This document shows positions 9,110 to 31,591 of a stretch of 32,674 nucleotides of DNA, piece after piece. The notes below the pieces were generated by a model that saw only the letters and a list, made by a program, of their open reading frames with translations, had not been told where the DNA came from and did no database searches. The stretch covers positions 1 through 32,674 of the forward strand of contig JBCCZL010000024.1 in the NCBI GenBank assembly GCA_039187775.1, written 5' to 3'. The position numbers and the translations under genes are program-made. Numbering within the stretch: position 1 is the stretch's first letter; each line of letters begins with the position of its first letter. The stretch is from Myxococcota bacterium (GTDB lineage Bacteria > Myxococcota_A > Polyangia > Polyangiales > JBCCZL01).

Positions 9110-9352
9110 CCCTAGATGCTAGCTCGGATGAAGCGCCGCGGGAGAGATTAAATTAGTTGCTTAAGCATCTACTAGACGTTGGTGTCTCTGTTCGAGGACG
9201 GCGCGGCGAGAGCTTGGAGCGATGCGCACAATTGTTGGCCCGGTTCTGTGCTGTGGTGTGTCCAACGGGGGCGGAGTCCGCGCATCGAGCGCAAGGCGAT
9301 CCGATCGAGACATTTCGATAACATGCCATTGACCGACTACTTCAGAGGTTCC

Positions 9353-10444
9353 ATGCGAGTCTTTCCTCAGGCCTTCATCTTTCTGCTCGCACTGCTTGGC
9401 TGCGGTGGTGACGATTCCGCGTTGGATGACGCCGCGGTGGCCGATGCGTCGACGGACCTCACCGACGCGGAAACCCCCATGACGGACAGTGCGGGCGACG
9501 GCGCGGATGGAAGCGATGGCTCGGACAGCCAGGCGCCGAATTGCGAGCCGGCGACCGTGACGCCCGGACCCACCATGGCCACACTGAGCTTCGGCGCCGC
9601 CGACCGCCAATACCTCCTGTACATTCCGACTTCCCTCGTTCAGCCGGCCGCCCTCGTGCTCGCATTCCATGGCGGCGGAGGGGCCGGAAGCATTGGCTTG
9701 CTTCAGGGCACCGGGCTCCGCGCCAAAGCCGATGAGGAGGGGTTCGTGCTCGTTGCGCCAAGCGGTATCGGCGGGTTCTGGAGCGCGGGGTCCTGCTGTG
9801 GCCCGCAGGCGGTGGATGATGTCGGGTTTGTTCGCGCGGTGATCGACGACGTCGCCAGTCGGGTGTGCCTCGATCCGAGGCGAGTGTTCGCGACCGGTCA
9901 CTCGAATGGCGGCATGATGGCGTATCGGTTGGCCTGCGAGCTTTCGGACCGAATCGCGGCGGTAGCTCCGAGCGCGGGTTATCTCGTGAACATCAACAAT
10001 GGGCGCCAGGGTGCGCCAGTGGAACCACCGACCACGATCTACGAGTGCCTACCCACGCGGCCCGTGCCGGTGCTCACCGTCCACGGCACGGGAGATACCT
10101 GCGCGCCGATCGAGGGAGGCCCCGTCACATGTGGGGGCACGCTCCTTCGACCGCCCGTCGCCCACGGCGTCGACATTTTTCGCGACCGCAACGGCTGCAC
10201 CGGCGAAGGAACCGTGAGTTTCGAGAATGGGGCCGCCCGATGTCTCAGCTACGCACCGTGCCGCGAAGGGTCCGACGTCGTGTACTGCACCGTCGAAAAC
10301 GGCGGCCACACCTGGTTCGGCAATCTCGGAATGACCAATCCCGAAGAGTTCGGCGGCGTCTACTCCGACGACCTCATCATGCAAAACGCCGCCTGGGACT
10401 TCTTCGCGTCCCACCCCATGGCGCAACCCGGGGGGACGAGGTAA
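9353..10444 (+). CDS. secreted alpha/beta-hydrolase esterase, poly(3-hydroxybutyrate) depolymerase family (LpqC-like)
   Basis: Start chosen at ATG 9353 (MRVFPQAFIFLLALLGCGG, a lipoprotein signal). LVLAFHGGGGAG...FVLVAPSG...VFATGHSNGGMMAYRLA carries the GHSNGG nucleophile elbow typical of esterase_PHB / COG3509. The last codons and the stop (GGG ACG AGG TAA) lie inside the terminal repeat of the MITE-like element. Confidence 0.75.
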   Translation: MRVFPQAFIFLLALLGCGGDDSALDDAAVADASTDLTDAETPMTDSAGDGADGSDGSDSQAPNCEPATVTPGPTMATLSFGAADRQYLLYIPTSLVQPAALVLAFHGGGGAGSIGLLQGTGLRAKADEEGFVLVAPSGIGGFWSAGSCCGPQAVDDVGFVRAVIDDVASRVCLDPRRVFATGHSNGGMMAYRLACELSDRIAAVAPSAGYLVNINNGRQGAPVEPPTTIYECLPTRPVPVLTVHGTGDTCAPIEGGPVTCGGTLLRPPVAHGVDIFRDRNGCTGEGTVSFENGAARCLSYAPCREGSDVVYCTVENGGHTWFGNLGMTNPEEFGGVYSDDLIMQNAAWDFFASHPMAQPGGTR

Positions 10445-10634
10445 TTTTTTTCCTCACCACGATCGCTAAACCCTCGAAATTACAGCGCCCGCGTTTCGCT
10501 CATCGAGGACTCGCGACGCGTTCCTGAACCCATGACTTTTCGGGTGTTGGGCGCACGCCGATCCGCCGAATGCTGAAGCGAGTGATTCCAGGTATTTGGC
10601 GATCGTGGTGAGGAAAAAAATTACCTCGTCCCCT
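10432..10634. mobile_element. MITE-like element of about 203 bp with 35-bp perfect terminal inverted repeats (GGGGACGAGGTAATTTTTTTCCTCACCACGATCGC)
   Basis: Left end 10432-10466 and the reverse complement of right end 10600-10634 are identical over 35 bp. Similarity continues imperfectly for about 20 bp inward (CGATCGCTAAACCCTCGAAATTACAG versus CGATCGCCAAATACCTGGAATCACTC). There are no ORFs inside. A related unit pair recurs at 30283-30870. Confidence 0.55.
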
Positions 10635-10683
10635 GGAGTTGTCCTTCGATTGGGTGGCGCGGGTCTTGCTGATGGGGAGGCCG

Positions 10684-11355
10684 ATGCGGATTCGTGACAC
10701 ATGTTGGCTCGCGCTTTTGGCTGGTGCGGTGGCTGGGTGCTCGGCCGCCCATGGGCGCGGTGATGGGGACACCGAGGAGGTCGATGGGCAAGTTCCGGAT
10801 GCGAGAATTCCGGATGGGTCCACTCCCGACCGTTTGGTGCCGGATGGCAGTCCCGATGGGAATGCGTTGGTCTCCACGTGCAGGAGCAGCGCGGACTGTC
10901 CGTCGGACCTCATCTGTTCTTTGTTTCAACCGATCTATCGCTGCGGAGGTCCGGCTCCGTTCCTCGCCTGTTATCCGGGGGATGATCCGCGAGGGGAGCT
11001 CATCGACGGCGAGCTGGACCGGAGATGCGAAGAAGGGGCTCTCTGCGACCCCGACGACTGCGGCGGAAGTGCCTGCGTTCCGGATTGCCGAGGCGAGGAC
11101 GGGGCGTGGTGCGGTCGTGGTCGGACCTGCGACGACACGACGGGCCTGTGCCGGACCGTCACCTGCGACCGCGATCGCATTGCTTGCCCAGACCACTTTC
11201 GCTGCGCGGCGCCGGGGGTCGCCACTGACCTGCCCTCCCGGTGCCAACGCATTCCTTGCTCGGCCGACCGGGACTGCGCGGGAGGGGTCTGTGCCGAGGG
11301 GCGATGTTTCGCGGCCGCGGGACTGTGCGCCGAGCTGACTCCTCCGCCTCCCTGA
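10684..11355 (+). CDS. cysteine-rich secreted lipoprotein (hypothetical)
   Basis: ATG at 10684 preceded by GGGGAGG (short 3-nt spacer). Alternative starts are TTG 10639 and ATG 10672. MRIRDTCWLALLAGAVAGC is a lipoprotein signal. The mature part is Asp/Gly/Cys-rich (about 24 Cys) with no Myxo-repeat periodicity. Confidence 0.6.
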   Translation: MRIRDTCWLALLAGAVAGCSAAHGRGDGDTEEVDGQVPDARIPDGSTPDRLVPDGSPDGNALVSTCRSSADCPSDLICSLFQPIYRCGGPAPFLACYPGDDPRGELIDGELDRRCEEGALCDPDDCGGSACVPDCRGEDGAWCGRGRTCDDTTGLCRTVTCDRDRIACPDHFRCAAPGVATDLPSRCQRIPCSADRDCAGGVCAEGRCFAAAGLCAELTPPPP

Positions 11356-17378: not shown

Positions 17379-20300
17379 CTATAGCTCGTTGTCGGCGCGG
17401 AGCTTGGCGTCGACGCGGCGAATCAGCTCGAGGAGCTGCATCACGTGCTCGTGGAGAGCCTTGGAGTCGGCGAGATCTTGGTTGGCCCGCTGGACCAGGG
17501 GGAGGAGCGAGCGCTCGACCACCTGAAACTGCTGAGCGACGAGGGCACTGACGTCCTGGTTTGGAGCTGCCCCTTGAAGGCCAGGAGCGTCGAGGTGCAC
17601 TTCAACCTTCGGGTGCTGAAGCGCAATGAGGGCCTGCTCGAGTCGGGAGAGCTGGGGCGCGAGGGCTTCCACCAATGCGCTGTGCCCGTTGCCGTTCGGC
17701 TCGGCCGCGTGGGCTTCCTGTGCCTCGCGTCGCGCGGCTTCACGACGCTCGGCGTTTCGAACGGCTTCTAGCCGTTGTTCTTCGGCGCGTCGCTTGTCGG
17801 CCTCGGCCTGTGCCCGGGCCGAGTCCTCGACTGCCTTGCCGAGCGCCTCTCGAATGGAGGAGAGCTCCTGCCCGAGCACCGACAGCGTTCCCGTGACGCG
17901 GGTCACCGGGTCGTCCTCGGCGCCGCCCATGCTCTTTTGCCGGCGAAACTCGGCCTTGATCTCCTCCCAGCGCGCCCGCTGCTCATCGGTCATGCGGCCG
18001 CGCATTTCGGCGAGCTTAAGGAGATTCTGCTCCGCGCCGGTGGTGAGGGTCTGTGACTCCGAGGCGTAGTGGTCGTCGATGAGGCGCTCGAGCTCCTCGT
18101 CATTCATTGCCGAGACCACCTTTTCGGAGAGCTTGTTCATGTTCCGGTAGCTCCCCTGGAGCTTAAACGGGGGCTCGGTTCGAAAACTGTCCTCCTGGGA
18201 CGCCGACTCGATATACTTCAGGTTTACCGCGAGAAGCACGTCGCGGACTTTGAAGAGCCGCTCGAAGACCGCCGTCATCTCCGAGAGCTCCGCCCCCGAA
18301 TAGCCGTAGCTCAGATCGGTGGTCGCGACCTGCTCGCCCTCCGCCATCTTGATCACCTTGTACACATCGCCCTGCTCCCGCGTCGCGAGCGGGGAGAGCG
18401 CCGCGTTCGAGGTGAGCGAGTTCTCGATGTAGCTCAGCGCGAACTGCTGGTCCTTGCCCTCCAAGATATCGCCGAGATTGTAGGTGTCCGCGCGGTTCGC
18501 GAGCATGTCCGGGATCTGGAACTTATCGCCGCTCTCGGTGTACGGGTTTCCCGCCATCACCACGCAGAACTTCTTGCCGCGAAGGTCGTACGTTCGGGTC
18601 TTTCCTTTCCACACGCCCTCGACGCGACGCTGAGCGTCGCAAAGGCTGATGAATTTCTGAAGTAGCTCGGGATGGGTGTGCTGGATGTCGTCGAGATAGA
18701 GCATCACGTTGTTGCCCATCTCGAAGGCGAGGTTGATCTTCTCGACCTCTTGCCGAGCGGTCGCGTTCGGCGCCTCGCCGGGGTCGAGGGAATGCACCCC
18801 GTGCCCCAGCGAGGGACCGTTCACCTTCATGAACACGAGTCCGAGCCGGTTCGCGATGTACTCCATCAGCGTGGTCTTGCCGTAGCCCGGCGGCGAAATG
18901 AGGAGGAGGAGACCCATGAGATCGGTCCGCTTCCCCGCCCCCGCGGCGCCCATCTGCTTGGCGAGGTTGTCGCCGATCATCGGCAGATATACTTCGTTGA
19001 TGAGCCGGTTTCGCACAAACGAGCTCATCACTTTTGGCTTGTACTCCTCGAGTCGAAGCCGCTCGCGGTTGTCTTCGAGGAGCGAATGTCGAGCGTTTCG
19101 GTACTCGCGAAACGCCGGCGCGCGACGGTGGGCAAAGTCGCCGAGGCGCTCGAGGAACTCGTCGAGGCGAAGCTCCATCGTTCGGTTACTGATCCGCGGA
19201 TGTTGGCCGAGGAGCCCTTCGACCTTGATCGCCGTAAGCGCCTCGCTGAGATCGCGATCGAGACTCTCGGTCAAGAGGAGCCCCGCCGCCTCTTCGCTCG
19301 CATGGGCCACCGCCTGAACCTCTTCTCGGTCGCTCGCCCGCACGAACGCCTCCACCCACGCTCGGGTCAGCCGAATACGGGCTCCAAGATTGCCTCCGAG
19401 GCCCGCTCGGTCGTCGTCGAATGCCCGCCGGGTGCCCGCCACGTCGAGATGTGAAAGGAGCAGATCGCGGAGCTTGGCCGCATCGTGGCTCGTGACGAAG
19501 CGTGGTCGTTCCTCGCCGATCTCGTCGACCAGGTAGCGTCCGGCGAGAAGGCATTCCTCTTCGGAGGCTTCGACGCTGCGTTCTTGAAAGAACGCGTGAA
19601 TCTGGGTGCCAAGCTCCTCGCCAAACGCCGCGCGCTCGCCGGTGGGCCCGAACGCCTCGGTGAGTCGGCCGAGGCTGTATGCCCGTTGGTGGAGCTCCGC
19701 GCGAAGCGAGCCGTCGGAAAGGTGCGCCCAGTACAGGCAGCCAAGGGTCCGCGGCCCCGGCGGATAACGAAGGAGTGCCGCCGAGTCCCGGAGCACGAGA
19801 ATCTTCTCGAGGATCAGGGCCGCGTCGGCGTCGTGCACCCCTCGCTCGTAGCCCTCGTCGTAGCGATCTGCGGCCACCTTTCGGACGAGTCCGAGCAGGC
19901 CCCCGTCGTTTCGCTCCGCTTCGTGGAGGGCCGCAACGGAGAGCTGCTGGCTCTCCGCCTCCGCCGAAAAGAGGATGCTCGCGGCGAGATATTCGCCCCG
20001 ATACACCTCGCGGGTTTCGGAAATGTACTGCTGGTCCCAGAACGGCTCGGTCTTTCGAAAGTCCGCGTCCTCGACGAGTTCGTAGAAGTTCGTTCCCGTG
20101 AGGTGGAGCGCCATCTCGCCTTCGCGGGGCACGAGCGATAGCTCGAGGGGCTGGGTGTTCACGGTGAAGCGATGTTTGCCGAACTTGATGAGGTCTTCGC
20201 CTTCCTCGAAGAGCTCGAGCTTGTCCCGCATCGCCCGGAGCGAGTCCTGTCGGGCGGTCTTGAGGCGGGCTTCGACCTCCTCGGCCTTGACCGAGTCGTC

Positions 20301-22784
20301 GAGCTCGCGGAGCTGCTCCACGATTTGGCGGAGCTTCATCACCATCGGGTCGGACGCAAAGTAGGCGTTGAGCTCGTCCTGCTCCTTGAAGCTGCGCCAA
20401 CGCCGACCTACTCCTTCAAGAATTCGGTGGGCCGCGTTCATCAGGTTCTCTGCGCGGCGCTGGCGCTCATCGAGGAGGGCCTGCTTCTTCGAGCTGAACG
20501 CGTCGTAGATCTCTTCGCGTTTTTTGCCGATGTCTTCAAGGAACTCGTCGAAGTCGGAAAAGCGCGCCTCGAGCTCTTCGAGCTGCACCATCAACCGCGA
20601 GAGCTGCTCGTCGGTGCGTTCCGGCGTATCCGCGAGGGTGAGGCCGCTCGAAACGCTCTGCCCGAGGAGATTAAACTGTGCGGCGAACTCCGCTCGACCC
20701 TCCCGTCCGAGGAGCTCCTGCCGCTTGGCGGTGAGGGTGGCTCGGGTGCGGTTGAGCTGAGAGAAGACCTCGCTGATCGCCTCGAGAATTCGCGTACGTG
20801 CCGTGGCGTCGTCGACCTCGAGGCCGGCGACCACTTCGCTGATCACGTTGAGTCCTTCGCTTACCTTCTCGAGGCGTTCGATCAGCGGGTTGATGTCCGC
20901 GACTCGATCGACCTCGTCGGTCTTTTCGAGGAGGCCTTCGAGCTCGGCGATCACCGGCTTGAGCGCGTCGTCTCGGAGGAGAAACTGCACGCACTCTCGA
21001 CTGACGCGGTCGAAGTGCTTGACGACCTCGTCTTCGTTCTTCTGAATCGCGTCGAGGTCGATGTAGCGGATGTCCCGAAGGGTGATGAGATGACCCCGCT
21101 GGTGCCGAAGCGCGGTGAGGACGCCCATGTACGCGTCGACGCTCTGGAGCTCCTCGGTGTGCACCCGGCGCACGAGTTCGGTCTGTTCGGCTTCGGCCTT
21201 TTCCAGGGCCTCCCGAGCCCGGGTCTGCATCGCGAGGACCTTTTCGAACTCGTCGATCACGAGCTCGGCGGTGCGCTTGATCTCGTCCAGCACCGGCTTG
21301 AGCCCGACTTCGTCGTTGGCGAGCCAGTAATAGGCATCGAGGATGCGGTTGGTGGATTCGACGAGGTCGTCGTAGGTGTACCGCCGCGGGTCTTCCCGGT
21401 CGATGAGGCGCTTGATGCTGTAGGCATCGGAGATCCCTCGGACGAGCTCTGCGTTTCCGACCTTCGCGAGAAACGAGCCGTCGGTGGGCGCCGCCGCTGC
21501 GTGTTCCGCGCTGAAGAACGGCGTTCGCCAGATCTGCATCGGGTGGACCCGAGTCGGCTCGTCGCTCAGGGCGCGAAACACGAGCATTTGGCCGTCATCG
21601 AAGATCGAAAAGCCGTGGCACTGAATCGGGGTCTGGGCCTCTTTTCGAATCAGGTTGTACGGAAGAAGTTCGTAGCGGCCTTCGTCCTTCCGGTGGAACA
21701 CGTAGAGGACATCCTCGCCGTTCGGCGACTTGATGACCCGCTTCATCTGCAGGCCTTCGCGCTCCGCATCGAAGATCTTGTATTCGCCGGTTTGGAGGTA
21801 ATAGCCGCCGGGAAAGATGATTCCGTGGTCCTCGGGAAGCTGGCGGCAGGCTTCCCCGACCGCATCGATTCGATGCACCGACTGCTCGCGCGCGTTGAAG
21901 ACGAGGTAGCGAAACTTCGCCTCTCGGAACGGGAGGATTTTTAGGAGGAGCAGGCCTCCGAGCTTGGCGTAGTAGAACTCGCCGTCATCGAGGGTCTGAT
22001 TCGGGTCTTCGACCGGCTCCGCGTAGATGCCGCGGCCACTTTCGGTGTTGTTCTCGACTTTGATCGTGAGGTCGCCGCCGGTCGTCTCGATGAAGCACTC
22101 GTCGAGGATCGAAAGGTGGGGGAAGCGGCCGGTGACCTGATGGTCGCGGGTGGTTTGCGTCCACTCGAAGTCGTACGGCGGCGGCAGTACATGATCCCGA
22201 TCGCCGCGGCCGTCCATGTAGGAGAGCGTGCCGTCGGGGTGCACTTTCCAGCGGAAGACTTTGACCTCGTCGATAGTGGCCCCCGTCTGGAAAAGTGCGA
22301 GGAGCCGGGTGTCGGTCTTTCGAAGCTGAACGAGCCGGGTCTTGTCGTAATAGCGGTACAGTTCCTGGAACTCTTTGACGAACGCCGGGTCGGCGAGGAA
22401 CGCGTCGCCAGCCTCTCGATCGACTTCCCCAAAGTCGTAGGCGCCGTCGTTCACCGCAAACTTGTGAAGGCTGAACACGTCGGAGACATCGGTCTCCTTC
22501 TTGAGGCCTACGAACACGTTGTAGCCAAAGAGGACCTGGCCCTGGACGTTGAGGATGTCGCGCGGGACGCAGTTATTTTCGGTGCGGATGCGCTCGTTGG
22601 CGATGACCTCGAGTTCGGTGCCGCCGAAGACTTCTTTTCGCCGGGCGTTGAGCGCTTCGATCTGTTGCCCGAGGGCTTTCCCTTGGGCGATCAGCCGGTT
22701 GCGGATGACCTCGTAGTTGCCTCCTTCGAGGGAGCCTTCCGCACCTTCCGGGGTTTCTTCGCCCGCTGAGGCTTCGTCCGCCAT
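17379..22784 (-). CDS. giant (1801 aa) coiled-coil protein with a single AAA_5 (MoxR/McrB-like) ATPase module; function unknown
   Basis: It has a Walker A LISPPGYGKTTLMEYIANRLG (about residue 1297; nt about 18870-18900), a Walker B VMLYLDDIQ and a sensor-1-like FCVVMAGNPYTE. There is a globular N-terminal region of about 450 aa. Long Glu/Leu/Arg/Ala-rich predicted coiled coils flank the ATPase. The start lies 9 nt downstream of the flotillin stop. Confidence 0.85.
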   Translation of the reverse strand: MADEASAGEETPEGAEGSLEGGNYEVIRNRLIAQGKALGQQIEALNARRKEVFGGTELEVIANERIRTENNCVPRDILNVQGQVLFGYNVFVGLKKETDVSDVFSLHKFAVNDGAYDFGEVDREAGDAFLADPAFVKEFQELYRYYDKTRLVQLRKTDTRLLALFQTGATIDEVKVFRWKVHPDGTLSYMDGRGDRDHVLPPPYDFEWTQTTRDHQVTGRFPHLSILDECFIETTGGDLTIKVENNTESGRGIYAEPVEDPNQTLDDGEFYYAKLGGLLLLKILPFREAKFRYLVFNAREQSVHRIDAVGEACRQLPEDHGIIFPGGYYLQTGEYKIFDAEREGLQMKRVIKSPNGEDVLYVFHRKDEGRYELLPYNLIRKEAQTPIQCHGFSIFDDGQMLVFRALSDEPTRVHPMQIWRTPFFSAEHAAAAPTDGSFLAKVGNAELVRGISDAYSIKRLIDREDPRRYTYDDLVESTNRILDAYYWLANDEVGLKPVLDEIKRTAELVIDEFEKVLAMQTRAREALEKAEAEQTELVRRVHTEELQSVDAYMGVLTALRHQRGHLITLRDIRYIDLDAIQKNEDEVVKHFDRVSRECVQFLLRDDALKPVIAELEGLLEKTDEVDRVADINPLIERLEKVSEGLNVISEVVAGLEVDDATARTRILEAISEVFSQLNRTRATLTAKRQELLGREGRAEFAAQFNLLGQSVSSGLTLADTPERTDEQLSRLMVQLEELEARFSDFDEFLEDIGKKREEIYDAFSSKKQALLDERQRRAENLMNAAHRILEGVGRRWRSFKEQDELNAYFASDPMVMKLRQIVEQLRELDDSVKAEEVEARLKTARQDSLRAMRDKLELFEEGEDLIKFGKHRFTVNTQPLELSLVPREGEMALHLTGTNFYELVEDADFRKTEPFWDQQYISETREVYRGEYLAASILFSAEAESQQLSVAALHEAERNDGGLLGLVRKVAADRYDEGYERGVHDADAALILEKILVLRDSAALLRYPPGPRTLGCLYWAHLSDGSLRAELHQRAYSLGRLTEAFGPTGERAAFGEELGTQIHAFFQERSVEASEEECLLAGRYLVDEIGEERPRFVTSHDAAKLRDLLLSHLDVAGTRRAFDDDRAGLGGNLGARIRLTRAWVEAFVRASDREEVQAVAHASEEAAGLLLTESLDRDLSEALTAIKVEGLLGQHPRISNRTMELRLDEFLERLGDFAHRRAPAFREYRNARHSLLEDNRERLRLEEYKPKVMSSFVRNRLINEVYLPMIGDNLAKQMGAAGAGKRTDLMGLLLLISPPGYGKTTLMEYIANRLGLVFMKVNGPSLGHGVHSLDPGEAPNATARQEVEKINLAFEMGNNVMLYLDDIQHTHPELLQKFISLCDAQRRVEGVWKGKTRTYDLRGKKFCVVMAGNPYTESGDKFQIPDMLANRADTYNLGDILEGKDQQFALSYIENSLTSNAALSPLATREQGDVYKVIKMAEGEQVATTDLSYGYSGAELSEMTAVFERLFKVRDVLLAVNLKYIESASQEDSFRTEPPFKLQGSYRNMNKLSEKVVSAMNDEELERLIDDHYASESQTLTTGAEQNLLKLAEMRGRMTDEQRARWEEIKAEFRRQKSMGGAEDDPVTRVTGTLSVLGQELSSIREALGKAVEDSARAQAEADKRRAEEQRLEAVRNAERREAARREAQEAHAAEPNGNGHSALVEALAPQLSRLEQALIALQHPKVEVHLDAPGLQGAAPNQDVSALVAQQFQVVERSLLPLVQRANQDLADSKALHEHVMQLLELIRRVDAKLRADNEL

Positions 22785-22793
22785 CGGACCCGG

Positions 22794-24920
22794 CTATTCG
22801 AGGCCGAGGTGTTTGGCCTGGTCGGCGAGGGCTTGGAGTTTGCCCTTGGTGGTCTCGTCGGCGCCGCTCATCAGCTTCGCAAGGATCGCGCTGACGCTGA
22901 GATTGCGGACCGTCTCCGAACTGATCGCCGGGCGAGACAGCACCTCGACCACATCGGCAGGAAGGGACTTGTCGCCGTTGAGGTACTCGGCGAGGAGCGT
23001 TTGCACGGTGTCGCTGTTGTGCACCATGCCGTCGGCGGACTGTCCGAGCGACACTGCGTTGACGAACCGGTCGAAGAACTCGCCGTCGCCGCCCACGATG
23101 TTGATCTTCGCGTTGGTCATCGCCTGGCTCATCACCTTGGCCTGATGCTCGGCGATCTCGGTGCGCGCATCGATGTGGCGGAGGTCGACTTCCTTTTCCT
23201 TCTCGAGACGGATCCGGAACTCTTCGTGTTCGCGGCCGACCCCATCGAGGGCCTTCATCGCGTTGGCCTTTTCGGCAAGGCCTGCCGCTTCGGCGCTGAG
23301 CTTCTTTTCGATGGCGAGCGCTTCGGCGAGGCCGGTCTGCTCGATGGCTTTCGCGTGCGCCTCTTTGATACGCGCTTCGGCCAACCCCTGGGCCTCCTGG
23401 CCGGTGGCCTCCGCGTTCATCTTCTCGCGGACCACCGCGGCGGTGGCGAGGCCTTCCTTTTCAGTGATCGCCGCGGCCGCATCGCGCACCCGGACCTCGG
23501 CGAGGCCCTCTTTTTCGATGGCGGCGGCATTCGCTTCCTTCACCCGGACCTGAGCGAGGCCCTGGGCGGCGGCTTCGGCCTGGGTCCCTTCGGCGAGGCG
23601 CATCTTCGCGCGCGCTTCTTTGTCGGACGCTTCGAGGTCGGCCTCGGCGATGGTGAGCGTTTCTTTGGCCTTGAGCCGCGAGACCTGCTCCTGCGCTTCC
23701 GCGGCCTTCACCGTCTTGAGCAGTTCCTCTTCCGCCTTCGCTTCGGCGGTGATGACGGTGGCTTCTTTCTTTCGCTTCGCGTCGGCCACGAGCCGGAGGT
23801 CTTTGATGCGCTCTTCTTCTTCGGCCACGGTCTTGTCGACGGCCACCCGGGAGCGAACGACGTCGGCGATCTCTTTCTTCTGGACCTCGACCTCCTTGTT
23901 CTTGGAGATCGTCTGGAGTTCGGTTTCCCGGTGTCGAGAAATCTCTTCGAGGGCGCGCGCTTTTTCGACCCGCTCGGTTTCGACGCCGATTTCGCGCTCT
24001 CGGTTTTTCTGGGCGACGGCGATGCCGCGCTGCTTCGCTTCGTCGGCGACGGCGATCTCTTCTTCGTGCTTCTGCCGAAGCATCATGGTGCGCTTGTGCT
24101 CTTCGTCCCGGACCCGGATCGCCTCGTTTTCTTCGCGGGCCTGCGCGCTCACGATCTCTTTGTTCTTCTTGGCTTCCGCTTCGGCGCGGCGCTGGTCGAA
24201 CTGAAAGATCGCTTCGTCGGCGGTGAGGTTTTGGCTGCCGATCTCCATGCGCTCTTTCTGGCGAAGCTCGTTGGTATGGACGTTCTGCGCCGCGGTGATC
24301 TCGGTGATCTTTCGAATGCCCTGGGAGTCGAGGATGTTCTGCGCGTCGAGTTTTTCGACCGGGGTCTGTTCGAGGTAGTCGATCGCGGCGTCGTTGAGGG
24401 TGTAACCGTCGAGATCATCTCCGATGACGCCGACGATGTTCTTCCGGAACTCGGATCGCTTGGTGTAGAGATCGGCAAAGTCAAACTGCTTGCCGACCGT
24501 CTTGAGGGCCTCTGAGAACTTGGCGCTAAACAGGTTGTCGATGGTTTGGGGGTCGGAGGCACGCTGGCAGCCGATAAGTCGGGCGACCTTGAGTACGTCT
24601 TCGGGCTCCTTGTTGACCTGGACAAAGAACGTGACGCGGATGTCAGCGCGAATGTTGTCTCGGCAAATGAGTCCGTCGGTGCCTCGGCGGTCGATGTCGA
24701 TCGTCTTGACCGAGATGTCCATGATCTCCGCGCGATGAACGATCGGAAAGACGACGGTTCCCGTGAAGGTCGTTTCGATCTTGCCGCGCATTTTGTTGAC
24801 GATGAGCGCTCGGCCCTGATCCACCTTGCGGTAGAAGCGTGCGAGCATCGCGAGGATGCCCATCAGGACAACGACGACGAAGCCGACTCCGACGAGGACA
24901 GGTAAAATATCTTCCAGCAT
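22794..24920 (-). CDS. flotillin-family SPFH (band 7) protein, YqiK/FloT-like
   Basis: 708 aa. It has an N-terminal TM (LPVLVGVGFVVVVLMGILAMLA) and an SPFH domain. A long EA-rich flotillin-type coiled-coil region (EAEAKKNKEIVSAQAREENEAIR..., AEAKAEEELLKTVKAAEAQEQ...) and a C-terminal tail follow. Confidence 0.85.
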   Translation of the reverse strand: MLEDILPVLVGVGFVVVVLMGILAMLARFYRKVDQGRALIVNKMRGKIETTFTGTVVFPIVHRAEIMDISVKTIDIDRRGTDGLICRDNIRADIRVTFFVQVNKEPEDVLKVARLIGCQRASDPQTIDNLFSAKFSEALKTVGKQFDFADLYTKRSEFRKNIVGVIGDDLDGYTLNDAAIDYLEQTPVEKLDAQNILDSQGIRKITEITAAQNVHTNELRQKERMEIGSQNLTADEAIFQFDQRRAEAEAKKNKEIVSAQAREENEAIRVRDEEHKRTMMLRQKHEEEIAVADEAKQRGIAVAQKNREREIGVETERVEKARALEEISRHRETELQTISKNKEVEVQKKEIADVVRSRVAVDKTVAEEEERIKDLRLVADAKRKKEATVITAEAKAEEELLKTVKAAEAQEQVSRLKAKETLTIAEADLEASDKEARAKMRLAEGTQAEAAAQGLAQVRVKEANAAAIEKEGLAEVRVRDAAAAITEKEGLATAAVVREKMNAEATGQEAQGLAEARIKEAHAKAIEQTGLAEALAIEKKLSAEAAGLAEKANAMKALDGVGREHEEFRIRLEKEKEVDLRHIDARTEIAEHQAKVMSQAMTNAKINIVGGDGEFFDRFVNAVSLGQSADGMVHNSDTVQTLLAEYLNGDKSLPADVVEVLSRPAISSETVRNLSVSAILAKLMSGADETTKGKLQALADQAKHLGLE

Positions 24921-25051: not shown

Positions 25052-25849
25052 TTACTTGGACTTCTCGTGGAGGATCGAGTCCATCGCTTCGACCTCGAAG
25101 GTGTCGCTCGCTTCGTCGTAGTCCACGAGGAGCACCCGCGCGTTGGGGTCGAGGGCGGAGTCCGCGCGGACCCGGAGAAGGCTGCCCGAACCGTCGTCCA
25201 GCGTGGCCTGGCCTTTTTCTCCGGGGTCGGCGTGCACCCGGACTCGGGCGACCTTTCCAACGAGAGTTCGCTTGCTTGGCGCTTTGTTCGAGACGAAGAG
25301 CTTGCCGATCGGCCGGCTGGTGAGGGACGCGAGAGGAAGGGCTACGAACAGGGAGGCGAAAAGGACGGTGAGTTGGCCGGCGATATCCGGTCCGGGAATG
25401 AGCGGGGCGGCGAACTTCGCCGCGTAGTAACAAACCAGCCAGCCAAACAGGAACAGCAAGCTGAGCGAGATGGTGATCGGGGCCTTTCGCAGACTGAACA
25501 CGCCTAGAAGCGCGGCGAGGGCCCCTTCGCCGCCGCCCGCGCCGCCGCCGCCGCCGTCCCCTGCCTCGCCGACGTCGGCCGCACCGGTGAGGTCGTCGCC
25601 AACATCTCCGTCCCCGAAGTCTCCCTCCCCAAGGTCGATGTCTGCGTCGCCCATGCCCGCATCGCCCGCGCCCGCGTCGCCCACGCCGGCATCTCCCACG
25701 TCCGCGTCGGCTCCGAGGTCGAGATCGAGCGCGCCGAGCATGACAAAGAGCCAATACATCAGCGACAGGAGGATCCCGGCGGTGAAGACCACCGTCGGAA
25801 AGCCAAACGCAATGGCGACAAACTCGTCCACGGGGCACCACCCTCGCAC
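25052..25849 (-). CDS. NfeD-like / YqiJ-like inner-membrane protein (OB-fold C-terminus) with an acidic Gly/Asp/Ala-rich low-complexity insert
   Basis: 265 aa with two TM segments, a GDAGVGDAGAGDAGMGDADIDLGEGDFGDGDVGDD linker and a C-terminal NfeD OB-fold-like region TLVGKVARVRVHADPGEKGQATLDDGSGSLLRVRADS...LLVDYDEASDTFEVE. It lies 131 nt upstream of flotillin, with a GGGAG SD-like sequence before the flotillin ATG. Confidence 0.75.
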   Translation of the reverse strand: MRGWCPVDEFVAIAFGFPTVVFTAGILLSLMYWLFVMLGALDLDLGADADVGDAGVGDAGAGDAGMGDADIDLGEGDFGDGDVGDDLTGAADVGEAGDGGGGGAGGGEGALAALLGVFSLRKAPITISLSLLFLFGWLVCYYAAKFAAPLIPGPDIAGQLTVLFASLFVALPLASLTSRPIGKLFVSNKAPSKRTLVGKVARVRVHADPGEKGQATLDDGSGSLLRVRADSALDPNARVLLVDYDEASDTFEVEAMDSILHEKSK

Positions 25850-27056: not shown

Positions 27057-27899
27057 CTAAAACCGATAGCTCAGACCGACGCTTAGCTCGGGGGTAAAGC
27101 CGTAGCTCTCGATCGCGTCTTCGGTTTCTCGTTCGACCTGTGCGGCGAGCTCGTCGTTTTCGAGCTCGACGTTCACATCCGCCGAAACCGTGTGGGTCCA
27201 GCCGACGGCGAGGCGAAGTCCAAGATGGTCGCCGAGCGCGATTCGCCAACCGATCTGTGCGCTCACCGCGTGAAGACGAACCGAAATCGGAACTGCCGCA
27301 AGCCCAAGGTTGGGGGCGCCGGGGACAAAGGCCTCTGCAAAGGTGTTCGGGTCGATGTCGCTTCCCCCGCCGATCAGGGTGTAGCCGCCGCCGATTTCAA
27401 AGCCGCCGCCGAGCGAGAGTCCCACCATCCACCGGACGTTCCAAAACCCGCTGTCGGTCAGCTCGTTGACGATCGGGTCGTAGTCATCCGGGATCGCGCC
27501 AGTGTCGCCGAGAACGCCGGTCACCACGCCGACGAAGGAGCTCGGGACATAGCCGACCCCGAAGCGCCCGAACAACGCAAACGGAGTGGTGAGCTGTGCT
27601 TCCAGCGAGGGTCCCAGCGGAACGGAAAGACGCGCGCCGAGTTCGAAGTCCCAACCGGAGCCGGAAGAAGACGACGAAGCCGCGGGCGCGGAGGACGATA
27701 TGGCGGAGGACGATGTGGCGGAGGACGATGTGGCGGAGGACGATGTGGCGGAGGACGATGTGGCGGATGAAGCCGCTGGTGCGGAGAGCTCACCGCCGGC
27801 TTCGGAGGTTTGCGCCTGCACTTCGCGGGCCGAGATTGATGACCCCATCGAAACGCACAGAGCGAAACAAACAAACGCGAACGTTTTCCGAGTTGTCAA
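27057..27899 (-). CDS. outer-membrane beta-barrel protein with Ser/Ala/Thr tandem repeat
   Basis: It ends ...ELSVGLSYRF with a C-terminal Phe, the OMP signature, and has alternating Gly/aromatic beta-strand patterns. The putative signal is MTTRKTFAFVCFALCVSMGSSISA from TTG 27899 (the ORF extends to 28001). The (SSSAT)5 repeat is encoded by 15-bp tandem repeats. Confidence 0.6.
   Translation of the reverse strand: MTTRKTFAFVCFALCVSMGSSISAREVQAQTSEAGGELSAPAASSATSSSATSSSATSSSATSSSAISSSAPAASSSSSGSGWDFELGARLSVPLGPSLEAQLTTPFALFGRFGVGYVPSSFVGVVTGVLGDTGAIPDDYDPIVNELTDSGFWNVRWMVGLSLGGGFEIGGGYTLIGGGSDIDPNTFAEAFVPGAPNLGLAAVPISVRLHAVSAQIGWRIALGDHLGLRLAVGWTHTVSADVNVELENDELAAQVERETEDAIESYGFTPELSVGLSYRF
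27688..27768. repeat. 15-bp tandem repeat (GCGGAGGACGATGTG) x5, in-frame within the OMP gene
   Basis: There are five near-perfect tandem copies. The first is the variant ...GATATG, followed by a degenerate copy. They encode SSSAT units on the minus strand. Confidence 0.8.
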
Positions 27900-28047
27900 C
27901 GGAACCCTGCCTTTCAGCACAGAAACCGATTCGGCCACTTTTCTACCGCCGCCGATAACGAGTCTGTAGGGTGAGTTGCCTCTCACCGGCAGGGGGTTCA
28001 TCTATTTTTTGCTAACCCCGTCGAAGCAGGAGCTCTAGTGTGGTCAC

Positions 28048-29170: not shown

Positions 29171-30220
29171 ATGCGGGTTCCCAAGGCCTTCTTCGAGCTG
29201 GCCTACGAGTTCGATCGAAGCCTTCGCCGTGCCCGGGCCACCGTCCAGCAGCAGTTCGGAGTTCGCCCGCCGCTCCGGATCGTTCCCTATCGAGGCTACG
29301 GCACTCGATCGCGCCTTCGGGTGCGCGCCCGGGTCCTTCTCGACCGAGGTGAACTTCCGCCCGAACTCGAGCGGGGAATGGTCGACGGGATTCGGGCGAC
29401 GGTGCAGCGCTTTCGAACCGAGCAGATCGCGCACTGCCCCCTGACCGTGCGGTGGGAAACGAAGACGGTGCATGCGCAGACCGATGAGGAGGGGTTTCTC
29501 GACGAGCTTCTCGCGCTTGAACCCCCGGAGGAAGCGGGCTGGCGGTCGGTCGAGCTCTCGCTTCGTGAAGACGATGGTGAGGAGACTCGAGCCCTTTGCC
29601 GGGTGGTGGACCGGTCACCCCGGATGATCATCACGGACATCGACGACACCTTGATCGACAGCCACATCACGAACCGGCTTCGACGGGCCGAGGCGATGTT
29701 TCTCGGCGAAGTGCGCCGGCGTCGCCCCTTTCCGGAAACGGCCGAGCTTCTGCAGGCGCTGGCTCGGGGTGCCGAGGAGCCGAACCCCGTGTTCTACGTG
29801 TCGAGCAGTCCTTGGAATCTTCACGACCATCTCGACCACTTTCTTTCGGTCCACGACTTTCCCCTCGGGCCGATCCTTCTCCGCGACTGGGGGCTCCATC
29901 GCGATGGCTTCGCCCCGGATGGGCGCCATGGGCACAAGCGCGAGAAGATCGAAACGATCCTCGCGGATCTCCCAGCTCAGCGGGCGATCTTGATCGGCGA
30001 CAGCGGGCAGCGCGACGCGGAGAACTATCGCGATCTGGTCTGGTCCCAGCCCGAGCGAATCGCGGGGGTGATGATTCGTCGCGTGGCGATGCGCCCCGGG
30101 CGGGTGCACCGTTACGCGTCGTGGACAGACGAGCTTCGGGCGACCGGCATTCCGTTCCTGGAGTTCACCCACAGTCGCGAGGCGTTCGAGTTTGCCCGCC
30201 GCAATGGCTGGGTTCCATGA
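29171..30220 (+). CDS. App1-like / DUF2183 (HAD-type DxDxT) phosphatase, putative phosphatidate phosphatase
   Basis: Start at ATG 29171 (MRVPKAFFELAYEF). IITDIDDTLIDSHI (the DxDxT catalytic motif) and FYVSSSPWNLHDHL (S-x-SPW) match the App1 catalytic-domain pattern. The long ORF from 28910 overlaps the previous gene and is not needed. Confidence 0.7.
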   Translation: MRVPKAFFELAYEFDRSLRRARATVQQQFGVRPPLRIVPYRGYGTRSRLRVRARVLLDRGELPPELERGMVDGIRATVQRFRTEQIAHCPLTVRWETKTVHAQTDEEGFLDELLALEPPEEAGWRSVELSLREDDGEETRALCRVVDRSPRMIITDIDDTLIDSHITNRLRRAEAMFLGEVRRRRPFPETAELLQALARGAEEPNPVFYVSSSPWNLHDHLDHFLSVHDFPLGPILLRDWGLHRDGFAPDGRHGHKREKIETILADLPAQRAILIGDSGQRDAENYRDLVWSQPERIAGVMIRRVAMRPGRVHRYASWTDELRATGIPFLEFTHSREAFEFARRNGWVP

Positions 30221-30282
30221 TCGCGCCGCACCTCGAACCTCCGAAGGCGCTGAAGAGTGCTCGCCGTTCCGAGGTTCACAAG

Positions 30283-30352
30283 GGCGGTTGAGTGATTTCA
30301 GGCGGTTGGCGATCGTGGTGGGGCAAGAAATTACCTCGTCCCCGTTTGTTGC
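30283..30352. repeat. palindromic repeat unit (inverted copy of the MITE terminal unit)
   Basis: GAGTGATTTCAGGCGGTTGGCGATCGTGGTGGGGCAAGAAATTACCTCGTCCCCGTTTGTTGC matches 32/35 to the reverse complement of the 10432 unit, plus an extended match (GAGTGATTYCAGG..TTGGCGATCGTGGTG) to the 10564-10634 arm. It contains the hairpin GCAAGAAA-N14-TTTGTTGC. Confidence 0.6.
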
Positions 30353-30358
30353 TTTTTT
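30323..30358 (+). terminator. candidate intrinsic terminator formed by the repeat hairpin plus a T6 tract, downstream of the App1-like gene
   Basis: GCAAGAAA ttacctcgtccccg TTTGTTGC TTTTTT: an 8-bp (7/8 paired, AU-rich) stem, a 14-nt loop and T6. The stem is weak for a GC-rich genome. Confidence 0.3.
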
Positions 30359-30442
30359 GACGGGTTGGCTTGGTTCGTAGTACCGCGGAGTTGGCGGGCG
30401 GCTTGTTAACGACTCTGGCCGTCGAGCTTGGGGGGCCTTGAT

Positions 30443-30448
30443 AAGGAG
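30443..30448 (+). promoter_or_regulatory. strong Shine-Dalgarno (AAGGAG) 5 nt upstream of ATG 30454
   Basis: ataAGGAGtgcgtATGATG. A consensus RBS of this quality is rare in this window. Confidence 0.6.
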
Positions 30449-30453
30449 TGCGT

Positions 30454-30723
30454 ATGATGCCCATTGAGTGGTTGCGGGGGCTTGTCGAGCGGGAAGCGGG
30501 CTACGAGGAGCTCGTCGAGCGAAGCGGCAGTCTGTCGGTGGCGGCACATCGCGTCGCGTCGGCTCGGTGTCAGACATGGTCGACTCCCACCGTCGTTCCA
30601 ACCGGTGCGGAGCTCCGGGCAGCGGCGCTCGAGATTGTTCGACGAGTCGACCTCCCCACGTCGGTTCCCACCGTCCAAGCGCTCCGCTCCGACTGCGAAG
30701 CCCGCGGCCTCCTCGTGCTCTAA
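30454..30723 (+). CDS. small hypothetical protein (89 aa) enclosed by inverted repeat units
   Basis: MMPIEWLRGLVEREAGYEELVERSGSLSVAAHRVASARCQTWS... It has a consensus RBS and GC-rich third positions, with no recognisable motif. It is flanked by an inverted unit at 30283-30352 and direct units at 30743-30870. Confidence 0.5.
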   Translation: MMPIEWLRGLVEREAGYEELVERSGSLSVAAHRVASARCQTWSTPTVVPTGAELRAAALEIVRRVDLPTSVPTVQALRSDCEARGLLVL

Positions 30724-30742
30724 CCCATCGACCCGCCACAAA

Positions 30743-30870
30743 CGGGGACGAGGTAATTTGTCGCAACAAACGGGGACGAGGTAATTTGTTGCCTCACCAC
30801 AACAAACGGGGACGAGGTAATTTGTTGCCTCACCACGATCGCTAACCTGCCGAAATCATGCGGCCAGGTT
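30743..30870. repeat. three tandem, progressively longer copies of the palindromic repeat unit (GCAACAAACGGGGACGAGGTAATTTGTTGC[CTCACCAC[GATCGCTAACC...]])
   Basis: The copies start at about 30743, 30771 and 30807. Each forms the hairpin GCAACAAA-cggggacgaggtaa-TTTGTTGC (perfect 8-bp stem). Only the third is full length (CCTCACCACGATCGCTAACCTGCCGAAATCATG), matching the 10432 unit and its inner extension. Confidence 0.65.
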
Positions 30871-30913
30871 CATCGGTGCACGAGCGCCCTCTTGGGACTA
30901 CTGGGTTGCCAGA

Positions 30914-31591
30914 TCAGCTCTCGCCATAGCCGAGGGCGAAGGCGTACAGGGCATCTTCGTGCATCGTTGGCCCCGGCGGGGGGAGCTCCGAGTCGCGGAC
31001 CGCAGAATCGATGCGTTCGTGGATCGCGTGGAACGGCACTCGGTCTCGCACGATCGACGCGGCGAGCCGATGGGCGCGAATGACTTCGTCGTCGAAGGCA
31101 CAGGCGGCGAGAAACGCAGCTTGGGCGGCGTGGGCACGCTGTGCGTAATAGGAACAGTCGGCATCGGCATCGCAGGCAAACGCCGCACAGGCGGCGGCCA
31201 TCGCTGCGTCGTTCGCACGAGCCGACCCCGTGGTTTCTTCGAGCTCACCCGCCGCATTTGCAGCGGCAAATCCATGCGCCCAGCATTCGGAGCCGCTCGC
31301 TTCGCCACGCACCCACGCCGACGCGAGATGAAGGGCCCGACGGGGACGAAACTCTTCGCGCGGGATGCGACCAAGCGACATCCCTGCACAGTCGACGGCA
31401 GCCTGCACCACCAAGCGCCTCGGCACCGCAACCCGAGTGGCGATCTGAAGGAGCCAGTCTCCCCGGTCGCACCGCTCCCATGCCTGACGAAGGTCGGGCT
31501 GGTGCCGCGCCCAGTCGACGAGCACCGGATCGAGCGCCAGGACTTCAAGGGTTCGCTCAAGGTCTCCCACGATGTCACAAACTCGATGCAT
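30914..31591 (-). CDS. hypothetical protein (225 aa), Ala/Cys-rich alpha-helical
   Basis: Clean ORF with high GC3, ending 44 bp from the repeat array. No motif recognised. Confidence 0.55.
   Translation of the reverse strand: MHRVCDIVGDLERTLEVLALDPVLVDWARHQPDLRQAWERCDRGDWLLQIATRVAVPRRLVVQAAVDCAGMSLGRIPREEFRPRRALHLASAWVRGEASGSECWAHGFAAANAAGELEETTGSARANDAAMAAACAAFACDADADCSYYAQRAHAAQAAFLAACAFDDEVIRAHRLAASIVRDRVPFHAIHERIDSAVRDSELPPPGPTMHEDALYAFALGYGES

Follow-up and report, generated by a model that had tools for sequence, protein, structure and literature searches.

Inverted copies of a probable miniature interspersed repeat flank an ordinary small gene in an uncultured member of the Myxococcota

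A repeat unit was found in six copies at two loci of a 32,674-nt contig from the metagenome-assembled genome (MAG) of a Myxococcota bacterium; this contig, analyzed as a whole, is referred to as the window. At the first locus, near 10.4 kb, two units in inverted orientation form the arms (A and B) of a two-arm element, termed E1, which lies between a polyhydroxyalkanoate (PHA)-depolymerase-like gene and a lipoprotein-like gene. At the second, at 30.3 to 30.9 kb, units were found to flank a small gene on its two sides, with an APP1 phosphatase gene before it and an Imm5-like gene after it (Table 1). An earlier note, made from the sequence alone, had described this second locus as a small open reading frame (ORF) boxed in by inverted copies of a hairpin unit, and had offered three explanations: (i) a cargo-carrying relative of a miniature transposable element with inverted repeats (MITE); (ii) a structured element similar to repetitive extragenic palindromes (REPs) and bacterial interspersed mosaic elements (BIMEs), serving as terminator or mRNA stabilizer; and (iii) a recombination hotspot that captured the gene.

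The repeat unit was defined by alignment of the four full copies, which gave the conserved sequence CAAC-N4-GGGGACGAGGTAATTT-N-TT-N-CC-N-CACCACGATCGC-N-AA...G-N-AAT, with a core of about 60 nt. The invariant 16-mer GGGGACGAGGTAATTT occurred six times in the window against 0.21 occurrences expected, a count reached by none of 100 shuffles, and a profile hidden Markov model (HMM) built from the four full copies gave matches to the six copies alone within the window. An outer motif, C[CT]A[AC]CC (CYAMCC), was also detected 13 to 16 nt outside the CAAC end of all four independent copies. With a background frequency of 7.5e-4 per position the joint probability of this finding is about 1.6e-8, a value that is too generous as the motif was defined post hoc and that is still far from chance. 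Since the outer motif is present in all four independent copies, the unit was taken to be about 80 nt long. The opposite, AATCA side was compared to ask whether arms C and D derive from E1-like elements by truncation to one half, and no significant extension of the arms beyond the AATCA end was found (C-D alignment, p = 0.71). Matches past this end between A and C and between B and C (p ~0.005, uncorrected, 12 tests) were dropped, being noncolinear and inside the APP1 coding sequence. The unit has a GC content of about 50%, compared with 64% for the contig (63.8%), and all copies are located in intergenic DNA or in the final codons of a gene. Two blocks of the unit, of 16 nt and 12 nt, are invariant and have their centers about two helical turns apart. 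Among the arms, C and D are the most similar (53 of 60 positions), with all other pairs identical at 46 to 50 of 60.

In E1 the unit copies at 10424-10486 (plus strand) and 10579-10641 (minus strand) are arranged with their CAAC/CYAMCC ends outward, for a total span of 10411-10657 or about 250 nt. The 60-nt arms at 10424-10483 and 10582-10641 were 83% complementary with 98 nt between them, and no credible ORF was found in the element. When folded, E1 (10405-10660, 256 nt) formed one continuous hairpin of -134.3 kcal/mol (z -9.3), in which the pairing enters the spacer. The element occupies nearly the entire gap between its two co-directional neighbors. In the PHA-depolymerase-like protein (gene at 9179-10444), residues 140-409 were matched by the catalytic domain model NCBIfam NF050058 (profile positions 5-276 of 276); E1 starts 6 nt past residue 409 (nt 10405), the last residue matched by that model. 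Arm A encodes the final ~11 codons of this gene as well as its TAA stop (10442-10444, inside GGTAATTT), and 27 nt separate the end of arm B from the ATG (10685) of the lipoprotein-like gene downstream. The abutment of E1 on the end of the catalytic domain, its supply of the stop codon and its end 27 nt before the next ATG were thus read as an insertion footprint, and on this basis the insertion of the repeat appears to have replaced the original 3′ end of the PHA-depolymerase-like gene.

At 30.3 to 30.9 kb the order is unit (minus strand), gene, unit (plus strand), with the CAAC/CYAMCC ends inward, i.e., the reverse of E1. The earlier note was accurate in reporting that the unit of the MITE ends recurs here in the opposite arrangement; its outline of one inverted copy and three direct copies of nested length was retained with the boundaries refined to 30290-30368 and 30735-30861, and the repeated NKRGRGNLLPHH that it had read in a spurious frame is present. 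The resulting inverted repeat (30293-30351 and 30800-30858) has arms of 59 nt that are 90% complementary, with 448 nt between them. The two truncated copies D'' and D' and the full arm D all begin at the identical CAAC end, and Tandem Repeats Finder reported a 36-nt period (2.0 copies, 100% identity) and a 28-nt period (2.0 copies, 96% identity). Given the 100% identity of D' with the start of D, the tandem duplication was considered recent; most simply, the tandem copies represent two local duplications of the arm head, an older one of 28 nt and a recent one of 36 nt. Outside D'', a CTAACC motif (30720-30725) overlaps the TAA stop of the small gene. No flanking duplication was found at this pair of arms, where only a nonadjacent GCGG recurs. 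A CRISPR array was ruled out, as the repeat copies are directly adjacent and have no spacers between them.

Table 1. Positions of the repeat copies and of the small gene in the window
Feature	Position	Strand	Remarks
Arm A of E1	10411-10486	+	CYAMCC at 10411-10416; CAAC at 10424-10427; core GGGGACGAGGTAATTT at 10432-10447, followed by CACCACGATCGC
E1 spacer	10487-10578		About 92 nt; noncoding; partly self-complementary
Arm B of E1	10579-10657	-	GGGTGG (complement of the CYAMCC motif) at 10652-10657
Solo arm C	30290-30368	-	Between APP1 and the small gene; CAAC/CYAMCC end toward the small gene
Shine-Dalgarno AAGGAG	30443-30448	+	5 nt between it and the small gene's ATG
Small gene	30454-30723	+	89 aa; hypothetical protein, locus tag AAGF12_04015
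Truncated copy D''	30735-30762	+	First 28 nt of the unit, with 2 mismatches
Truncated copy D'	30763-30798	+	Unit positions 1 to 36; matches the start of D at 100%
Full solo arm D	30799-30861	+	Intergenic, with the small gene on one side and the convergent Imm5-like gene on the other

The small gene that lies between arms C and D is a real, conserved gene and is native in composition. Its ribosome-binding site is as the earlier note had read it: the AAGGAG-N5-ATG is present and is the sole AAGGAG-N5-DTG of the window, where 0.46 would be expected by chance. The GC content at the three codon positions was 0.73, 0.53, and 0.74, and the in-frame codon score of 0.16 per codon was comparable to that of APP1 (0.17) and of the Imm5-like gene (0.17), with the other frames negative or lower. 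A word-indexed homology search with the 89-aa protein returned only the protein itself, and its relatives emerged with an exhaustive HMMER search, in which 101 were found at E ≤ 1e-3 and 26 at E ≤ 1e-10 among 1.84 billion cluster representatives. The doubt, raised earlier, that the ORF might not be conserved is thereby removed. The best homologue was 60% identical across residues 1-89. In an alignment of 56 members, an N-terminus of M-x-P-x-EWL and a C-terminus of GL-x-V-[LI]-stop were common to the family and the window protein, A35 and P49 were invariant, and W6, L7, L20, G25, A30, A31, E53, A57, A58, C81, G85, L86, and V88 were at least 90% conserved. An AlphaFold2 model based on the family alignment displayed a five-helix domain with a mean predicted local distance difference test score (pLDDT) of 96.9 and a predicted template modeling score (pTM) of 0.88. 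Thus, the homology and structure checks proposed for this protein yielded a conserved family with a confident five-helix fold; neither a Pfam or NCBIfam model nor a clear structural relative was found for it. The family members are about 88 aa in length and have so far been found in Myxococcota-like high-GC genomes, with the homologues at least partly from Myxococcota.

The neighbors of the small gene were found to differ at every locus examined, and included (i) a PGM and a Pol-beta nucleotidyltransferase; (ii) a 4HBT thioesterase and a DLH hydrolase; (iii) a protein kinase; (iv) a MopE-like protein; and (v) a GAF/PAS histidine kinase. A 112-aa Pol-beta-type nucleotidyltransferase (PF18765, with a weak match to PF01909) is encoded 90 nt downstream of the 60% homologue and on the same strand (L063, 5408-5746; L064, 4539-4877), a pairing that was not repeated at the other loci examined. 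When the 400-nt flanks upstream and downstream of the gene were compared at five homologous loci, the best result was an 11-nt match (E = 0.03), as compared with E = 4e-17 for the window, and the unit profile gave no match in the homologue loci examined. As the homologues at these loci have neither flanking repeats nor common neighbors, the small gene does not behave as cargo. Moreover, the CAAC/CYAMCC ends that face outward in E1 face inward here, which places the small gene outside what termini of the E1 type would delimit; the gene looks boxed in because arms C and D are mutually inverted. The suggestion of a cargo-carrying MITE relative was therefore not supported, given the inward-facing ends, the native codon statistics, and the five homologue loci devoid of bracketing repeats. 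The most fitting description of C and D is that of two solo arms, located in the two intergenic regions on either side of an ordinary gene, with one arm per region.

The question of whether 30290-30861 may nonetheless be one entity, either a composite element that carries the small gene or the product of a recombination between unit copies that captured the gene and replaced the prior content, was considered with the aid of related loci. The lineage is poorly sampled, with the closest APP1 homologue 58% identical and the next 48%. Two relatives at the 48% level were readable in this region and share the gene order of APP1, ABC (ATP-binding cassette)-transporter genes, Imm5-like gene (minus strand), and HIPIP. 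Their Imm5-like orthologues were 41 to 45% and their HIPIP proteins 37 to 41% identical to those of the window. In place of window positions 30221-30913 these relatives have genes for an ATPase and an ABC-2 permease (L061, 7062-9683; L062, 7056-8818), together with a solute-binding protein in L061, and both the small gene and the unit are absent from their APP1-HIPIP locus. The interval from APP1 to the Imm5-like gene thus appears to be variable, and an APP1 identity of 48% is too distant to date or explain the change. With regard to the Imm5-like gene itself (30914-31591, minus strand), which is convergent to the small gene, the match to Pfam Imm5_like was 24.9 bits compared with a gathering score of 25. 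A single origin for the region would account for the similarity of C and D, which at 88 to 90% are the most similar arms and provide the main point in its favor, and it would be consistent with the ABC-transporter genes found in the interval of the two relatives and with the different neighborhood of the small gene in each genome examined; in addition, MITE-bounded composites that move the intervening DNA are documented (TIME-COMPs, PMC4133298). However, the arms are inside out with respect to E1, each side carries a single arm and not a complete element as in TIME-COMPs, there is no flanking duplication, and the similarity of C and D stops at the AATCA end. The native composition of the gene, the presence of its homologues elsewhere without repeats, and the possibility that at 48% APP1 identity the difference in gene content is ancient also argue against it. 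A single entity of either type was therefore judged quite unlikely, and we retain the description of C and D as solo arms around an ordinary gene.

The RNA structure of the unit was also examined, as the earlier note had taken each copy to be a strong hairpin and the inverted copy, together with the T6 run that follows it, to be a terminator for the App1-like gene. Neither proposal was upheld. The GCAACAAA/TTTGTTGC hairpin amounted to -5.3 to -8 kcal/mol (z -0.7 to -2) and was found only in the four copies at 30.3 to 30.9 kb; the copies at 10.4 kb have CAACCCGG/CAACTCCA as one side and TTTTTTTC as the opposite side, which cannot pair (z > 0). When single 81-nt units were folded on either strand, seven of the eight folds were no better than those of shuffled sequences (z -1.3 to +0.7). 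The T6 run (30353-30358) is present in copy C only, where it lies in the variable linker that joins CAAC to the outer motif. The hairpin and tail of copy C, with an AT-rich stem and a loop of 12 to 14 nt, gave -5.4 kcal/mol (z -0.46), and a terminator scan identified no intrinsic terminator in 30150-30950 or 10350-10750. No sigma-70-like promoter was detected by scan at either repeat locus, and a sigma-54 or sigma-70 promoter inside the unit was likewise rejected by scan and by eye. A search of Rfam 15 gave no match for the whole window at the gathering threshold and none for the two repeat loci at E ≤ 1. While the long blocks are invariant across the copies, the hairpin positions vary without compensation, which fits conservation at the level of DNA or of protein recognition and not as an RNA fold. 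The unit is conserved as sequence (i.e., as its two invariant blocks), not as a fold.

These findings bear on the proposal that the unit is a host-functional cis element (e.g., a co-opted REP/BIME, a SPRITE, or a Correia-like sequence), kept by selection as a protein-binding site or as a structure for RNA end formation or protection. The two long invariant blocks about two helical turns apart do resemble a protein-recognition site. Three of the four sites are at or just past the 3′ end of a gene, with arm A overlapping a stop codon, D'' located 12 nt past the stop of the small gene, and C located 70 nt past the stop of APP1. The paired arms, if transcribed, would also give very stable RNA stems, and in the minus sense a hairpin that contains G-U pairs (GGCGA..GGUGA / UUACC..UCGUC) can be drawn in three of the four copies. 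Counter to this proposal are the results described above, namely the single-unit folds, the weak hairpin that the two loci do not share, the T-run limited to one copy, and the lack of a terminator-like site, a sigma-70-like site, or an Rfam match, and to these is added the inconsistent orientation of the units with respect to the neighboring genes. Overall, a function in cis for the host was considered unlikely as the reason for the conservation of the unit.

The arms could alternatively be crossover sites for a site-specific recombinase encoded elsewhere in the genome, in which case 30352-30799 and the 92-nt spacer at 10.4 kb would be invertible segments subject to phase variation. Long and highly similar inverted repeats do surround a complete gene with its own ribosome-binding site, and two such segments are present on one contig. 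The arms of about 60 to 80 nt with 83 to 90% identity are, however, much longer and more diverged than typical inverton repeats, no recombinase is encoded on the contig, and the spacer at 10.4 kb contains neither a promoter-like site nor an orientation-dependent gene. The tandem truncated copies found here are also unlike invertase sites; such copies are not known as a feature of Hin/Gin-type sites or of Bacteroides inverton sites. Inversion at these arms was thus regarded as very improbable.

To determine how widely the unit is distributed, sequence collections were searched. The strict unit core gave no match among 185,579 species genomes (one genome per species); a loosened, gapped pattern gave 42 matches in the same genomes, which were rejected as single chance matches in unrelated taxa. 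Two unit patterns gave no match in the JGI metagenome contigs, the 16-mer core gave 16 matches in IMG/VR, all of which were unrelated AT-rich phage sequence, and nothing similar was found by blastn of the unit against the PLSDB plasmids and INPHARED phages. The peptides encoded by the unit (three open frames, joined) had no similar sequence at E ≤ 10 among 5.8 billion predicted proteins. Likewise, no parent insertion sequence (IS) or transposon with matching ends was identified on the contig; no similar DNA occurred in the plasmids and phages, and the core patterns were unmatched in the genomes and metagenomes. The search for the unit in relatives that had been proposed earlier, made here in these collections, recovered no copies beyond this contig. 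So far the repeat family is seen only in this uncultured myxobacterium and, judged by these sequence searches, would be lineage-specific, a property that the REP and REPIN (REP doublet forming hairpin) families share (PMC3337134). The contig itself has an ordinary chromosomal gene content, including GGDEF/FHA, DUF4215 Cys-rich repeat, ferritin-like, GH5, and rhodanese proteins, an extracytoplasmic function (ECF) sigma factor, YaaA, a molybdopterin oxidoreductase, ChaC, an 1,801-aa DUF3686/AAA protein, DUF2490, the APP1 phosphatase, and HIPIP. No tRNA gene is present on the contig, and an origin of the unit as a tRNA or att remnant was rejected on this ground.

The unit and E1 were then compared with known systems. 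REPs and REPINs, which are mobilized by tyrosine transposases associated with REPs (RAYTs; PMC3337134 and PMC3116915), are similar in that they are short, lineage-specific, extragenic units of which inverted doublets fold together with their spacer into one hairpin; in that singlets, higher-order tandem arrangements, and both doublet orientations occur; in having a tetranucleotide at one end of the unit (CAAC/GTTG here versus GTAG in the REPs of E. coli and Stenotrophomonas); and in having no target-site duplication and no transposase nearby. Unlike REPs of about 20 to 40 nt, the unit described here is 60 to 80 nt in length and its own palindrome is poor, and E1, at about 250 nt with a larger spacer, exceeds typical REPINs of about 90 to 150 nt. 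Thus, the doublet hairpin of a REPIN is found in E1, and the palindrome of the individual unit is not. The MITEs with long terminal inverted repeats (TIRs), such as Correia/NEMIS, ERIC, RUP, and the Rickettsia RPEs (PMC10969869 and PMC3184786), share with E1 a size of about 250 nt, a noncoding sequence bounded by long TIRs, a composition that is AT-richer than the host, a location between genes, and, in several families, an in-frame fusion that supplies a stop codon; when transcribed, they give long RNA stems able to alter mRNA processing. E1 differs from them in that no target-site duplication is visible, no parent IS with matching ends turned up in the sequences searched, and E1 is the one complete copy, with the others being solo arms. 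Of the characters that define a TIR-type MITE, terminal inverted repeats around a short noncoding element are therefore present and a target-site duplication is absent.

A gene between two copies of a miniature repeat is also seen in the MITE-bounded composites and in particular in the TIME-COMPs, i.e., composites of Tn3-derived miniature elements with inverted repeats (TIMEs), which have two complete TIMEs (262 bp, with 38-bp inverted repeats) as their bounds and are flanked by 5-bp direct repeats, with 5 to 6 bp given for this class of elements as a whole (PMC4133298). The window differs in having a single arm per side, with the ends that are terminal in E1 directed inward, and no flanking duplication. 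Over 38 nt, from GGGG to CGCTAA, the unit has a superficial likeness to a 38-bp inverted repeat of the Tn3 family. This resemblance was rejected: the GGGG is not a terminus, as conservation continues for 8 to 28 nt outside it (CAAC at -8 and CYAMCC at approximately -21 to -24), and a Tn3-derived TIME is further contradicted by the lack of a 5-bp duplication and by the single arms. Integron attC sites have one orientation and occur once per cassette, with core sites of GTTRRRY and RYYYAAC; an attC site or cassette was rejected because the copies flanking the gene are inverted and the unit ends, CAAC...AATCA, do not fit this core-site consensus. Overall, the repeat is not an intrinsic terminator, an attC site, a CRISPR array, a known Rfam family, a TIME, or a TIME-COMP. 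In its workings, an E1-type element comes closest to a REPIN or long-TIR MITE, and it shares only some of the defining characters of either.

Taken together, these results suggest that the unit is probably the arm of a lineage-specific, nonautonomous interspersed repeat of the MITE/REPIN kind, with E1 as the complete two-arm copy and C and D as solo arms. Of the explanations first offered, it is the REP/BIME-like one that is best supported in its general sense of an interspersed intergenic repeat; the role of terminator or mRNA stabilizer that accompanied it is not supported, as the hairpin is weak and unconserved between copies. The arrangement is in line with published families: REPINs occur as doublets in both orientations, as decaying singlets, and as higher-order tandem arrays (PMC3337134), and MITEs are known to fuse in frame with the ends of genes and to form clusters of elements nested in one another (PMC10969869). 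A transposase whose gene lies at another place in the genome may have spread the arms. With respect to the type of enzyme, we lean toward an HUH/RAYT-like or other nonduplicating mechanism over a classical TIR transposase, based on the lack of target-site duplication and the conserved tetranucleotide at the unit end (CAAC/GTTG, compare the GTAG of REPs); the poor palindrome of the unit and its length of 60 to 80 nt lean instead toward a TIR-type MITE. The tandem copies could have arisen by replication slippage at the hairpin-prone arm head. Effects on expression would be a by-product of the sequence: if transcribed, E1 would give an RNA hairpin of -134 kcal/mol between two co-directional genes, and transcription continuing from APP1 would enable C and D to pair (z -9.1) in a 59-bp stem around the mRNA of the small gene.

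Several observations weigh against this interpretation. The genome is sampled by a single contig, so that the copy counts apply to these 32.7 kb, and within them the four independent arms form two close inverted pairs and are not scattered. A scan of the contig proteins identified no transposase, integrase, or recombinase, and therefore no cognate transposase for the arms, and no RAYT (Y1/HUH transposase) gene flanked by units was present on the contig. Target-site duplication is absent at both definitions of the E1 ends, the flanks being TGGCG and TCCTT at the CAAC boundaries and TTCTT and GGTCT at the outer-motif boundaries. No empty site was available for comparison, the nearest relative (58% identical in APP1) being too distant at the DNA level. 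The closeness of C and D hints at a shared origin or gene conversion rather than two independent insertions. Finally, the common CAAC start of both partial copies, with a microhomology of 1 nt, is poorly explained by simple slippage. An undescribed transposition or copying system, in which the 28-nt, 36-nt, and full copies represent prematurely ended copying from a fixed CAAC origin, could be imagined, as could a winged-helix-like small protein that binds the units on either side of its gene; these more speculative ideas were given a slim chance. The interspersed repeat of the MITE/REPIN kind remains the reading that we favor.

Other repetitive sequences in the window reside within genes. An 835-aa protein (2835-5342, minus strand) contains 13 DUF4215 cysteine-rich repeats, and the DNA of its gene consists of diverged direct repeats with a period of mostly 192 to 198 nt and 60 to 73% identity. 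Short tandem arrays with a 15-nt period were detected within ORFs at 27663-27770 and 25644-25703; the former encodes a Ser/Ala/Thr-rich run, (SSSAT)n, in a 314-aa protein (27057-28001, minus strand) that has no Pfam match. The 1,801-aa protein (17379-24920, minus strand) combines DUF3686, DUF7902, and AAA domains and is preceded, on its upstream side, by the gene for a 708-aa protein without a Pfam match. Both genes have the top codon scores of the contig, and the pair may represent an uncharacterized ATPase system.

With regard to the biology of the group, the findings add one family of miniature repeats that is lineage-specific and comes from a part of the myxobacteria with little sampling. 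E1 provides a clean example of a repeat arm that rebuilds the 3′ end of a gene, and the locus at 30.3 to 30.9 kb illustrates that two solo arms on either side of an ordinary gene can produce the appearance of a boxed-in gene. As a by-product, a conserved and confidently folded family of small proteins (~88 aa) was recognized that had previously been unnamed. If the genome held hundreds of copies of the unit, the repeat would be a marker for strain typing and for the study of repeat/transposase co-evolution in the Myxococcota.

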